Source: a bacterium
GTDB taxonomy: Bacteria > UBA8248 > JACPRG01 > G963555815
NCBI GenBank assembly: GCA_965261595.1
Contig: CBDHDG010000006.1
Span: 992,001-1,056,000, forward strand
Length of the DNA stretch: 64,000 nucleotides
Direction: 5' to 3'
Part shown: one piece after another, positions 30,136-40,522 of the stretch
Layout: every line of letters begins with the position of its first letter
Numbering within the stretch: the stretch's first letter is position 1
Made by a program: the position numbers and the translations under genes
Notes under the pieces: generated by a model
Told to the model about the DNA's origin: nothing
Database searches by the model: none
What the model saw: the letters and a program-made list of their open reading frames with translations, nothing else

Positions 30136-30659
30136 AGAGCGGGGGAGGGGTGAACGGCTCCAAAGGAGAAGAGAGCATGGCGCACATCGTCAATCTCAGG
30201 CATGCGCCAGCCCTGCGGGCGGCGCTTCACGGCAAGCCGCTGGCCTTCTGATGCGCGCCGCTGCCCTGCCATGGGCAGGTCCTCGCCCGCGCCGCGGCAT
30301 GGGCGGCCTCCGTCCTGGCGGAACGGAGGGGAGAGTGAAGCGGGAGAGGGGCGAACGCCGCGAGGAGGGAGAGAGAGGGCCCCGGGCACCGGCAACACGG
30401 AAGGAGAACCGAAATGCAATCCGTCACTTTCAAGTGCATCGCCCCGTACGAGTCGAGGGTCTACCACGATGGCAATCTCGCCTGCGAGGTTGCGGAGCCA
30501 CTCGTCGATACGCGTCCGTTGCGGTGACGGGCCATGCCGTCTTCGGGCGATCCCTTCGGGCCGGGATCCCCGCTGCAATCTCCGCTCCGCTCCGATTTTC
30601 GCTTCCATCCCTATCGCCTCCGCTCGCTGGCGCTCGCTGCGCGCTCCTGTACCTCTTAT

Positions 30660-30845
30660 AAGTGACTCTGCGCTTCAATAGCACGGAATTGGGCAGGCCG
30701 CCGGGAGCAACCCTTGCGCGCTCAGTGCCATCAGCACCTCAAGCGGACAGGTGCCCCGGCGGTCCTGCCACGACGGATGCCCCGTGAGGAGTTAGCGCCT
30801 TGAGCGCCAAGTACAGGAGTCGGCAGGCGTCGTGGCAGGCCCAGC
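30660..30845 (+). ncRNA. Predicted IS110 bridge RNA (ends approximate)
   Basis: Two stem-enclosed internal loops whose segments match the target (TGCGCGCTC, CAAGCGGA) and the donor (GTGAGGAGT, GTACAGGA). Confidence 0.8.
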
Positions 30846-30876
30846 CACCATCGCACAGATTAGGGAGGGAGACGAA

Positions 30877-32247
30877 TTGGCAGATCTCAAGTGGTTTGTC
30901 GGAATCGATTGGGGGTCCCGAATCCACCAGGCCTGCATCCTCGACGCGAACGGCGACGTTCGAGCCGAGCATGCGTTCGCCCACGGCGGCGCCGGTTTCG
31001 CCGCGTTGACGGACTGGATTCTGTCCGGCACCGAGGAGGCGCCGGCGGACCAGGTCGGCGTGGCCATCGAGACGCCTCGCGGACCCGTGGTCGAAACGCT
31101 CCTCGGATGCGGCTTCGCCGTTCACTCCATCAACCCCAGGCAACTGGACCGCTTCCGCGACCGTTACTCGCACGCCGGGGCGAAGGACGATCGTCGCGAC
31201 GCCCTGGTGCTGGCGTCGGCGCTACGCACCGACCCGCACCGGCTGCTGCGGGTCAAACCAACGGCTCCCGCAATCGTCGAGCTGCGCGAGTGGTCCCGCA
31301 TCGTCGAGAGCCTGACGCGCGAGCGGGTGCGCCTGTCCAATCGCATGTGCGACCAGCTCTGGCGTTACTACCCCGAGTTCATCAATGTCGTGGAGGACTT
31401 CAATGTTCACTGGGCACTGGCCCTTTGGAACCGCGTGCCGACGCCCGCGGCCGTGCGCGGCGTCCGGCTTTCCACGCTCGAGAAGCTTCTGAAAAAGCAC
31501 CGCGTTCGACGTATCACCGCCGAGGAGCTCCGCGACCAGCTTACCGCGCGCGCCATCGACATCGACCCCAGCGCAATACGCGCCGCCGAGACCCACGCCC
31601 GCATCATTGCGAAGCAGCTTGCGCTCGTGAACCAGCAGTTGACAGAGGCCAACTCACGTCTCGAGGCGCTCGTCACCCAGCTCGCCGAAGCCGCCCCCGA
31701 TCCGGACGAAAGTTCCGAACCGGGGCAACACAAAGAACAGCGTGACGTGGCTATCCTGCGTTCTCTGCCCGGAGTCGGCACGGTTGTCCTCGCCACGCTG
31801 TTCGCAGAGGCCGATGACGCTCTGCAGCGCCGAGACTACCACGCGCTGCGCTGCTTGTGCGGCGTGGCGCCCGTCACCAAGCGCTCCGGCAAGAGCATGC
31901 GCGTCTCCCTCAGACGCGCCGCGCATCGTCGCCTGCGCAATGCCACCTACCATTGGGCACGCGTGGCCATGCAGAAGGACCCCGTCTGCAAAGCCAAGTA
32001 CCAGGTGCTTCGCTCCCGAGGCCACGGCCACGCCCGTTCGCTGCGCTCCGTCGCAGACCGCCTCCTCAATGTCGCCTGCGCCATGCTTCGCGACCAGACA
32101 CTGTTCGACCCGCAGCACGCCAGCGCTGCAGCAGGTTCACACCGCGAAGCGGTCAATGGAATCTCAATTGAATCATCTGTTGTTGGTCCTGTGGAGCTTG
32201 TGGGCGAGAGGGGCGAGAGTGTGGGCAACGCGGTGGGCAACGCGTAA
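30877..32247 (+). CDS. IS110-family DEDD recombinase/transposase
   Basis: VGIDWG, IE, KDDRRDA (DEDD); SLPGVG; GVAPVTKRSGKS (catalytic Ser); TTG start after AGGGAGG. Confidence 0.93.
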   Translation: MADLKWFVGIDWGSRIHQACILDANGDVRAEHAFAHGGAGFAALTDWILSGTEEAPADQVGVAIETPRGPVVETLLGCGFAVHSINPRQLDRFRDRYSHAGAKDDRRDALVLASALRTDPHRLLRVKPTAPAIVELREWSRIVESLTRERVRLSNRMCDQLWRYYPEFINVVEDFNVHWALALWNRVPTPAAVRGVRLSTLEKLLKKHRVRRITAEELRDQLTARAIDIDPSAIRAAETHARIIAKQLALVNQQLTEANSRLEALVTQLAEAAPDPDESSEPGQHKEQRDVAILRSLPGVGTVVLATLFAEADDALQRRDYHALRCLCGVAPVTKRSGKSMRVSLRRAAHRRLRNATYHWARVAMQKDPVCKAKYQVLRSRGHGHARSLRSVADRLLNVACAMLRDQTLFDPQHASAAAGSHREAVNGISIESSVVGPVELVGERGESVGNAVGNA

Positions 32248-32752
32248 GCGTTGTCCACGGACTTGTCCATACGGCCCGCAGGGCTCGCGCCGGTCCTCAG
32301 GACTCGTCCACAAATCCATAGGACTACCCCCTTGCAAGTTGGTGAGGAGTCCGCTTGCCGGGCCGGCGCCCGAGACCCGCGTCTCAATCCCGGAACCGCA
32401 CAGGGCGTCCGGGACAGTGGCTAACAATATCCCTCTCGACGTGATGGCCCATTGTCCCACACGTGCTCGCTGCGCCAACCCCGCCTCCGGCGGGGTCCTC
32501 CTCTTCGTTCCGGCCCTGGCTCGCAAGGCTACGGCGCTGAAGCGCCTAGGCGCGGCAAGAAACGCGACCGAGGCTCCGCGCTCCCTGCGGTCGCTTGTGC
32601 GCCCGCGCCACTCGCGCCCCTCGCCGCGCCAGGCCTTGCGGCCACGGTGGCTTTGCTGCGCGCGCGTGGGCCACTCAACCATCACGTTCGGAGACTCTCT
32701 CCGCACAACGAACCGTAACGGTTCTCAACCCTCTACCCGGAAGGAGAGCATC

Positions 32753-35169: not shown

Positions 35170-35422
35170 TGCCGTTCTCCGTCGCGAGCCCCTTCCTCTA
35201 CGGGACGCGATCAGCAACGCCCTGTAGATTCAACAATGAAATCTTTGTGTCATGCACGCATCCCCGGCTGTCCGCCAAACCGTCTTCGTGCCAGCAGCCG
35301 AGTCGCCGCAACGCATTCGTCGAGGGAGACGAACACAGCCAAGTCCGGGGACGTTGCTTCCAACGAGTACGGCCAAGTGTCGGCCGCTCCGTAGCCGAGT
35401 AGCGCAAGGCGTAGAACCAATG

Positions 35423-36826
35423 TCCCCCGCTCTAGGGTTTTGTTGGACACTCGATTGATCCATGATTCATGGAGAAAGGGGTGTCGCGATGAACGAACAA
35501 AAGCAAGAGGGGGCTTTGGCGGAGGGCGCCCGTAGGGCGAACGGAGCCAAGGCCCCAGGGCATCGCAGTGAGCGGGGTCGGTTCTCCTGCCAGCGCAAGC
35601 GGGAGGCGGTCCTGCGTCTTTTGCGGGGCGAGAGCCTGGAGACGCTCTGCCGCGAGTTGGGCACGACAGCGGCTCGGCTTTCCGCCTGGCGCGAGGCGTT
35701 CCTTCGCGGGGGCGAGGCGGCGCTCAAAGCCCGCCCGGCGGATGAGCGGGACGAGGAGAACGCCCGGCTCAAGGCCAAGGTGGGCGAACTCACGATGGAG
35801 GGCGAGGTCCTGCGGGAGAAGATCGACCGCCTGGAGGCCGGCCGCCCTTTAGCCGGCAGGAGGTGGAGGCGATGAGTCAGGCCCGCTTCACCTCCACGGG
35901 CAGAGCCTACGGCCTGAAGCGGGTGTGCGCCCTTTGGGGCTTGGCGCGCTCCACGGTCTACGCGCAACGGCGGCGAGAGGCGGTCCCCGTTCATGAACGC
36001 CCCACGCCCAATAAGCGCGGCCCTGTGGGCCCGTGCACCGATGCGGAACTCCTCGGCCACATCCGGCAGGTCCTGGAGGACTCTCCCTTCCATGGCGAGG
36101 GCTACCGCAAGGTGTGGGCGAGGCTGCGCTTCGCGGGCATCCGCACCAGCAAGGAGCGGGTGCGTCGCCTGATGCGGGAGGCGGGGCTTCAGGCCCCCCA
36201 CCGGGTGGGCAAACCCCGAGGTCCCAAGGCCCACAACGGGACCATCCGCACCGAGCGGCCCGACCGAATGTGGGGCACGCACATGACGACGACGGTGACC
36301 ACCGAGGAGGGGATGGCCTCGGTGTTCGTGGCGGTGGATCACTGCTCGGTGGACTGCGTGGGGATCCATGCGGCCAAGAGCGGCAACCGCTTCGAGGCCC
36401 TGGAGCCGATCCGGCAGGGGGTCGCCGAGCGCTTCGCCGGCTTGGAGGCGGACGTCGCCGAGGGGCTTAAAGTTCGTCACGACCACGGCCCCGCCTATCT
36501 GTCCGATGACTTTCAGCGGGAGATCGCCTACCTGGGCATGACCAGTTCGCCCAGCTTCGTGCGGGCGCCCGAGGGAAATGGCTACTGTGAGTGGTTCATC
36601 CGCATCTTGAAGGAGAATCTCCTGTGGGTGCGCTCTTTCGCCACCGTAGAGGAACTGCGGTGGGCGCTGCTTGAGTTCAAGAACCTGTACAACCATCATT
36701 GGATTCTCGAGGGCTACGGCTACCGAACGCCGGCCCAGGCAAGGCAGGAAAAACTCGCTCAAGTTGCGGAGGCCGCATGAGGTCGAATACCCTCACCCGA
36801 GTGTCCAATAACCCAGGGGCGGTCCA
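35423..36826 (+). mobile_element. IS3-family element copy 1 (1404 bp), TSD AATG; first DDE Asp mutated to His
   Basis: Ends TCCCCCGCTCTAGGG..CCCAGGGGCGGTCCA; orfA about 35489-35875, orfB to 36780; WGTHMT instead of WGTDMT. Confidence 0.92.
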
Positions 36827-38988: not shown

Positions 38989-39118
38989 CGTGCTCGCCCA
39001 ACAAACTGTTGAACGCGCGCCTGCCAAACTCCATGAAAAACGCGTCAAAAGGTGTCCCATGATCCTGCTCGGCACCGTGGACATCGAGCATGCCCTCGCT
39101 TAGTCCCCAAGAAAGATC

Positions 39119-40522
39119 TGGACCGCCCCTGGGTTATTGGACACTCGGGTGAGGGTATTCGACCTCATGCGGCCTCCGCAACTTGAGCGAGTTTTTCCTG
39201 CCTTGCCTGGGCCGGCGTTCGGTAGCCGTAGCCCTCGAGAATCCAATGATGGTTGTACAGGTTCTTGAACTCAAGCAGCGCCCACCGCAGTTCCTCTACG
39301 GTGGCGAAAGAGCGCACCCACAGGAGATTCTCCTTCAAGATGCGGATAAACCACTCACAGTAGCCATTTCCCTCGGGCGCCCGCACGAAGCTGGGCGAAC
39401 TGGTCATGCCCAGGTAGGCGATCTCCCGCTGAAAGTCATCGGACAGATAGGCGGGGCCGTGGTCGTGACGAACTTTAAGCCCCTCGGCGACGTCCGCCTC
39501 CAAGCCGGCGAAGCGCTCGGCGACCCCCTGCCGGATCGGCTCCAGGGCCTCGAAGCGGTTGCCGCTCTTGGCCGCATGGATCCCCACGCAGTCCACCGAG
39601 CAGTGATCCACCGCCACGAACACCGAGGCCACCCCCTCCTCGGTGGTCACCGTCGTCGTCATGTCCGTGCCCCACATTCGGTCGGGCCGCTCGGTGCGGA
39701 TGGTCCCGTTGTGGGCCTTGGGACCTCGGGGTTTGCCCACCCGGTGGGGGGCCTGAAGCCCCGCCTCCCGCATCAGGCGACGCATCCGCTCCTTGCTGGT
39801 GCGGATGCCCGCGAAGCGCAGCCTCGCCCACACCTTGCGGTAGCCCTCGCCATGGAAGGGAGAGTCCTCCAGGACCTGCCGGATGTGGCCGAGGAGTTCC
39901 GCATCGGTGCACGGGCCCACAGGGCCGCGCTTATTGGGCGTGGGGCGTTCATGAACGGGGACCGCCTCTCGCCGCCGTTGCGCGTAGACCGTGGAGCGCG
40001 CCAAGCCCCAAAGGGCGCACACCCGCTTCAGGCCGTAGGCTCTGCCCGTGGAGGTGAAGCGGGCCTGACTCATCGCCTCCACCTCCTGCCGGCTAAAGGG
40101 CGGCCGGCCTCCAGGCGGTCGATCTTCTCCCGCAGGACCTCGCCCTCCATCGTGAGTTCGCCCACCTTGGCCTTGAGCCGGGCGTTCTCCTCGTCCCGCT
40201 CATCCGCCGGGCGGGCTTTGAGCGCCGCCTCGCCCCCGCGAAGGAACGCCTCGCGCCAGGCGGAAAGCCGAGCCGCTGTCGTGCCCAACTCGCGGCAGAG
40301 CGTCTCCAGGCTCTCGCCCCGCAAAAGACGCAGGACCGCCTCCCGCTTGCGCTGGCAGGAGAACCGACCCCGCTCACTGCGATGCCCTGGGGCCTTGGCT
40401 CCGTTCGCCCTACGGGCGCCCTCCGCCAAAGCCCCCTCTTGCTTTTGTTCGTTCATCGCGACACCCCTTTCTCCATGAATCATGGATCAATCGAGTGTCC
40501 AACAAAACCCTAGAGCGGGGGA
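39119..40522 (-). mobile_element. IS3-family element copy 2, TSD GATC
   Basis: Near-identical to copy 1; GATC at 39115-18 and 40523-26. Confidence 0.93.

Follow-up and report, generated by a model that had tools for sequence, protein, structure and literature searches.

An insertion sequence of the IS110 group lies at positions 30645..32352 of the window, the stretch of 64,000 nucleotides analysed here. The locus raises the question of which bases are shared by its target and its two ends, and of how far the guides of its RNA extend on either side of them. TCC is present at both junctions (30645-47 and 32350-52), as had been noted in the initial annotation of this DNA, and each of the two right guides extends 8 bases into TCC. 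A TC core, different from the CT of IS621, and longer right-hand guides of 6 nt had been proposed there. The features found are those of the IS110 family: a short core common to both ends, site-specific insertion, an empty allele, and a recombinase with an N-terminal DEDD RuvC-like domain (PF01548) and a C-terminal Tnp domain with the catalytic serine (PF02371).

Junctions, core and guides

Homologs were collected by a metagenome scan, with alignment of 40 of 120 listed proteins, which gave the best 80 of 570 relatives (47-61% identical). One further homolog was obtained from viral contigs and one locus from a single-protein scan of genome contigs; among 101 kin genomes the protein was found at E 1e-40 in one only, its own. 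Together with the window element this makes 83 loci. Four of them are short of upstream DNA and 13 repeat a guide set, leaving 66 non-redundant guide sets, in which guide positions were taken from alignment columns. Neither the target guides nor any assumed core letters entered the junction calls. The donor arm by itself located the left junction in 54 of 66 sets, and the left donor guide followed by GT located the right one in 40 of 66.

The two bases preceding the donor arm were CC in 53/54 left junctions, and CC followed the donor's T in 40/40 right junctions. Both ends were found in 35 sets; the suffix they have in common is CC only in 27, TCC in seven and absent in one; C took the place of the T in 44/54 left junctions. 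GG was found at the core columns of both right guides in 66/66 sets. Because of these junction counts and GG columns, the core of the clade reads as CC, and the T as position 7 of the site, common to target and donor by chance in the window copy. The site geometry so deduced is 7+2+5, 14 bases in total, as in IS621. A core other than CT is thus upheld by the homolog junctions; the TC core with longer right guides is rejected, and we attribute it to a one-base slip of register, the T being shared at position 7.

In the window, all on the forward strand, the left target arm (positions 1-7; 30639..30645) is host-island DNA that matches the left target guide and is the same in four filled and seven empty copies of the island described below. 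It is followed by the left CC copy (positions 8-9; 30646..30647) and by the right donor arm (positions 10-14; 30648..30652), the first bases of the element's left end, which are the complement of the right donor guide and are conserved in homolog left ends. At the other end, the left donor arm (positions 1-7; 32344..32350), which matches the left donor guide, forms the last bases of the right end; the right CC copy (32351..32352) and the right target arm (positions 10-14; 32353..32357), host-island DNA identical in 11/11 island copies, come next.

The left junction of a homolog on a Skermanella plasmid is the same as that of the window element, and a homolog on a Sinorhizobium plasmid has this left junction and a CC right junction. 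Two loci with flanks different from those of the window, L076 and L077, have CT at the left junction and CC at the right one. CC is accordingly not absolute: target position 9 can be T.

The left non-coding end (229 nt) carries a predicted bridge RNA with two guide loops (30691..30842, forward strand; fold z = -3.5), and the right end extends about 103 nt past the stop codon. An RNA in the left end is the property that separates the IS110 from the IS1111 group, as defined in the text consulted of PMC11208160. The four guide matches were confirmed, in order and where the annotation had placed them, with lengths of 9, 8, 9 and 8 nt. When the 5' non-coding region was shuffled 20,000 times with dinucleotides preserved, a chain of one match was obtained 292 times, of two 34 times, and of three or four never.

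All guides are read on the forward strand. The left target guide (30716..30723) covers target positions 1-8; 30715 adds one matching base and position 9 is unmatched. The right target guide (30740..30746) is made of 5 variable bases and the GG opposite the core. The left donor guide (30786..30792) covers donor positions 1-7, with a match that reaches out to 30784, and the right donor guide (30811..30817), again 5 bases plus GG, matches the left end.

The closing stems and small hairpins that had been described for this region hold in an alignment of 23 sequences, the window sequence and 22 homologs hand-picked from 79 aligned. The consensus structure had 96.9% of its cells paired, slid controls giving 28-43%; both-sided changes were found in 20/34 pairs, a number that 0/500 shuffles reached. 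The RNA region matched no Rfam family, and two weak eukaryotic Rfam matches, below threshold, were rejected. Two internal loops, the guide order left target, right target, left donor, right donor, and left guides pairing with bottom strands and right guides with top strands are features of IS621-type RNAs. With the covariation, these properties identify the predicted RNA as a bridge RNA of the IS621 type, as had been suggested. A T-to-C change at window position 30833 was seen in two of the four copies of the element, C6:1335583 and C3:36507, and would break one donor-loop stem pair.

Covariation of guides and flanks among the homologs had been put forward as a check, and was found. The five bases of the right target guide matched the right flank in 193/200 comparisons, against a mean of 83 and a maximum of 118 under permutation, and the next base out matched in 5/40, which speaks against a sixth guide base. 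For the left target guide 298/378 positions matched the left flank (permuted mean 184, maximum 216); its register varies by one among homologs, and both one-base registers were allowed in data and permutations alike. None of 10,000 permutations was as good in either case, P values that overstate independence since the loci are related. The donor guides vary too little for such a test and served to call junctions.

The 66 sets comprise 48 different predicted targets and 28 different right-guide pentamers, so the clade has been retargeted many times, a natural reprogramming across homologs. In many loci (L067, L069, L073, L074, L089, L090, L132 and others) the right target guide is all G and insertion is into C runs. 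The loci L075-L083 form a subgroup sharing one kind of target, seen in their left flanks. Its sequence resembles a tRNA T-loop; ARAGORN, run on seven of these loci, reported no tRNA gene, and insertion would split such a gene.

The bases following GG in the right guides, previously counted as part of longer guides, read as handshake guides covarying with the target. In IS621, handshake guides pair with positions 6-7 of the other DNA within the 7+2+5 geometry (PMC11208158, text consulted; for the handshake logic also PMC13626964), and the same pairing is seen here. The target-loop handshake guide AC (30747..30748) is complementary to donor positions 7 and 6, with AC opposite donor T7/G6 in 34/40 sets, a figure in which the donor GT was itself part of the junction call. 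The donor-loop guide AG (30818..30819) is complementary to target positions 7 and 6. For its first base and target position 7 the pairs G-C (45), G.T (5), A-T (3) and T-A (1) were counted in 54 sets. Watson-Crick pairs thus account for 49/54, and 4/100,000 permutations were as good. At position 6, Watson-Crick pairing was found in 11/54 with no clade-wide covariation; the window copy is matched there. The 66 guide sets hence provide natural support for the handshake model.

Target and donor of the window copy have the same base at position 7, a coincidence avoided by designers of bridge RNAs (10.1101/2025.05.14.653916, text consulted). For this one element, only position 6 would discriminate, and it would be fully paired after exchange.

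The recombinase and its known relatives

The recombinase gene (30877..32247, forward strand) codes for an IS110 DEDD/serine recombinase of 456 aa with matches to PF01548 and PF02371; the TTG start is inferred from an upstream GGAGG. The NCBIfam model NF033542 was matched with 169 bits (cut-off 140). The DEDD residues and catalytic serine reported earlier are present: D11, E65, D105, D108 and S337, numbered with the TTG at 30877 as residue 1, are aligned to the catalytic residues of IS621. The predicted structure (pLDDT 80.9) had IS621 and ISCro4 as best folds, with E 5e-12 and 19-20% identity. In agreement with the earlier description the enzyme is apparently intact, the four copies in the genome differing by 1-3 bases within the element. 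Three weak tblastn matches in the same genome (G000; C5:292737, C4:427342 and C7:424318) suggest distant IS110 remnants or members.

In the portion of PMC11208158 consulted, IS621 is described as reading T9 through the backbone of G63. The loop after Glu65 of the window protein is T-P-R, in place of the A-T-G that follows the catalytic Glu in IS621, and the residue aligned to G63 is Arg. His or Arg was found at this position in 75/82 loci parsed and Gly in none; six of the other seven are perhaps mis-parses. A causal link between the changed Gly position and C9 is only a hypothesis, because the contact in IS621 is made via the backbone.

The element resembles IS621 of Escherichia coli, as described in the text consulted of PMC11208160 and PMC11208158, in having the RNA in the left end, the same guide order, loops split by small hairpins, a 7+2+5 site, handshake dinucleotides for positions 6-7, DEDD and serine residues, a predicted junction promoter and the same fold. 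It differs in its core, CC for the window clade and CT for IS621, and in its protein, which is about 20% identical and, at 456 aa against about 326, longer, an additional helical block being predicted between the coiled-coil helices. Its natural right target guide spans all five bases, unlike that of IS621, and position 7 is shared by target and donor in the window copy. With a CC core and no Gly at the G63-aligned position, it is an IS110-group element with an IS621-type bridge RNA that stands outside the CT-core IS621 clade.

ISCro4 (IS622, Citrobacter rodentium; 10.1101/2025.05.14.653916) has the 14-base recognition and handshake guides, and 9t56 was the structural match; according to the text consulted it has a CT core and is 88% identical to IS621, and so is equally distant from the window clade. 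ISPpu10 of Pseudomonas putida, likewise of the IS110 group, fills many copies of one repeated non-coding target, although with a CT core and a REP target (10.64898/2026.03.19.712850, text consulted).

The protein clade itself is already in the discovery dataset of PMC11208160: a QLDRFR motif, seen in the window protein and its homologs, occurs in nine proteins of Supplementary Table 1, in an unnamed IS110 clade of the tree in Fig. 1c. None of these nine rows carries an ISfinder name, and neither an RNA nor a core for the clade was found among the text searched, Supplementary Table 5 lying outside it.

Bridge recombinases are described as using a CT core, with GT, AT and TT engineered and a second base that is almost invariantly T near IS621 (PMC11208160 and PMC11208158, text consulted). 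What appears new is the clade-wide C at core position 9. A text search of the IS110 literature, to which figures, most subscription papers and bioRxiv supplements did not belong, found no CC core. None is named in the searched text of PMC11208160, PMC11187229, PMC11213020, PMC13604230, 10.64898/2026.03.19.712850, 10.64898/2026.08.14.744561, 10.64898/2026.10.21.760802 or 10.64898/2026.08.31.748434. Bridge RNAs have been predicted for most IS110s (PMC11208160, in the part consulted), and 32,190 of them have been modelled with cores called per element (10.64898/2026.10.21.760802, in the part consulted). Because of this survey, and of the figures and bioRxiv supplements outside the search, the CC-core clade may already be in print.

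The mechanism class is unchanged by a CC core. More sites would become addressable with a natural enzyme of CC core whose right guide has the full five bases, and its core would be orthogonal to CT; orthogonal cores have been reported to suppress cross-talk between two bridge RNAs (10.64898/2026.04.29.721476, text consulted).

The island target and its alleles

The genome contains four copies of the element, the others differing from that of the window by 1, 2 and 3 bases, all at one site of a repeated region; gene, guides and ends are intact in 4/4. The site occurs in 11 copies, four filled and seven empty. It is non-coding, between a Toprim-domain (primase-like) gene and a YAcAr/SLOG-family gene, with ssb and phage-type integrase genes nearby. 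These neighbours and the 11 copies suggest that the region is a mobile island. A search of plasmids for the site gave short matches only (15-19%).

Other genes in the window code for transposases (IS256-like, IS1595-like and DDE_Tnp_1) and for several phage-type integrases. An IS3-like insertion sequence of 1.4 kb with an rve domain lies at about 35400-36800 and again at 39100-40500; among the matches listed, very many 99% identical copies of it are present across contigs.

Filled sites read TCC (4/4) and empty sites read TAC (7/7), a mismatch at the first core base. The empty TCC site that had been reconstructed by removing the element is absent from this genome, as is any perfect 14-base target. 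Comparing filled TCC with empty TAC by Fisher's test gave P = 0.003, a value not relied on, because the filled-site alleles are inferred and two copies are near-duplicates.

Empty TCC alleles do exist elsewhere. One (L007) was found in G006, a genome of the same family, where it is 87-92% identical to the emptied window; a protein search of G006 had no recombinase match. Among contigs of four runs from four studies, a joint fitting an empty TCC site was found in 3/4 and a TAC joint in 2/4, the TCC joints having sides of 26-27 letters at 90% likeness. The target motif also occurred in viral contigs (49 loci, 51 matches: TGC 24, TTC 16, TCC 7, TAC 4), in unrelated contexts, and these were dropped for allele frequency.

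In G006, eight of nine island copies (L157, L160, L162, L164, L168, L170, L172 and L174) have a deletion of about 48 nt between short repeats, which removes the left target arm and retains TCC and the right arm. It may be unrelated to the element, because the protein search of G006 had no match.

The reading that best accounts for these data, to which we give a probability of about 0.85, is that of an IS110-group element with a circular intermediate and a bridge RNA, acting on a 7 + CC + 5 site of 14 bases, TCC copies of the island being filled and TAC copies empty. Sequence comparison supplies the ends, the CC core, the four guides, the target and handshake covariation and the target site; the reaction steps are modelled on IS621. 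The element would excise as a circle whose joined ends make a promoter for the RNA, and a recombinase tetramer would hold target and donor. Top strands would be cut after the second C (position 9) and exchanged, a position taken from IS621, as the junction duplication fixes the shared bases and not the scissile bond. The handshake pairs AC/donor 7-6 and AG/target 7-6 would then favour insertion, and bottom-strand exchange would complete it. The left junction would retain the core of the target, which L076 and L077, CT left and CC right, fit.

The window copy would be programmed for the non-coding island site between the Toprim and SLOG-family genes. TCC copies would become filled, and TAC copies, with an AC core unmatched by either target guide or by the donor core, would stay empty; IS621 cores differing in the first base are reported to block cross-recombination (10.64898/2026.04.29.721476, text consulted). 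Before insertion, TCC was probably the allele at all four filled sites, because the left junction of L076/L077 fits retention of the target core. The TCC/TAC allele pair is a ready test of core stringency. The emptiness of TAC copies may reflect ordinary stringency and not a special core effect, because six other one-mismatch sites of the genome are also empty. The GCT-rich target motif recurs, with a variable middle base, in unrelated elements (viral contigs L022, L025, L026, L027, L029 and L036), so that a conserved motif may leave the mismatched core base free to vary.

A broader interpretation is held only tentatively, with the odds somewhat against it. Here the element would belong to a large undescribed clade of bridge recombinases whose native CC core is read by a RuvC loop remodelled from the Thr-Gly of IS621 to Pro-His/Arg, a clade orthogonal to CT-core tools at a position thought to be fixed. 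Handshake guides would co-evolve with targets, and the island would escape through a change of TCC to TAC or, in a relative, through left-arm deletion.

We judge it unlikely that all filled copies descend from a single ancient insertion into a TCC island, which homologous recombination or duplication of the island then carried to other copies, with no activity needed now. The island is mosaic, which fits spread by recombination; to the right of the site, the first variable position is C in 4/4 filled versus 1/7 empty copies, and two filled copies with identical near left flanks may represent one event. However, differences between filled copies are met within 39-46 bases of the junction on the left and 67 on the right, and amount to 3-4% in the near left flank; the elements themselves differ by 1-3 bases in 1.7 kb and are intact in all four. 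This explanation bears on the number of insertion events and not on the CC core.

Quite improbable is that the element enters the common TAC allele, its mismatched core notwithstanding, and that repair then turns both junctions to TCC. The genome has no empty TCC site and seven TAC sites. In the flank tree the filled copies are not grouped: three changes are required, and a tree that holds these copies together has p-AU 0.047. As one empty TAC copy is also only 4 differences in 400 bases away from two filled copies, TCC marks no single lineage. Against this, the mosaic island weakens the flank tree, empty TCC alleles exist in G006 and in the run contigs, and L076/L077 kept a deviant target core at the left junction. 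Moreover, given the stagger of IS621, every such event would have to leave a left junction with the target's base at position 6 and the donor's at position 8, to judge from the text consulted of PMC11208158.

The register first proposed, a TC core with 6-base right arms and a geometry longer than that of IS621, has very little left in its favour: it has the shared TCC of the window and of 7/35 sets behind it, but against it stand the CC-only majority, the C found where T is expected, a right target guide of which only five bases vary with the flank, and a donor-loop base after GG that follows target position 7 through three kinds of Watson-Crick pair, as a handshake base does.

The joined ends and the right end

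A linear promoter scan of the left end found none. When circle junctions were reconstructed by joining the two ends, a -35-like hexamer facing the left end (32332..32337 in the window, forward strand) had at least 4/6 consensus matches in 31/34 junctions, and TAnnnT was found at 17-nt spacing from it in 27/34. The window copy has the -35-like hexamer; in its candidate -10 region (30650..30662, forward strand) the family position, 30650-55, lacks the last T, and TATAAG is located seven bases further, at 30657-62. These elements suggest that the joined ends could form a promoter for the RNA. The back-joint of the circle was not found in contigs of the four runs, and contigs drop rare forms.

A long branched hairpin is predicted at 32184..32327 (forward strand), overlapping the disordered tail of the gene and the right end; its terminal motifs were found in 1/38 right ends, that of the window. 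Many homologs (right ends of L099, L101, L104, L106 and others) have in common a structured block of about 150 nt that is unlike this hairpin, and in others the right end is short. The pattern resembles structured cargo that can be exchanged. Contigs from other organisms accumulate over 32184-32327.
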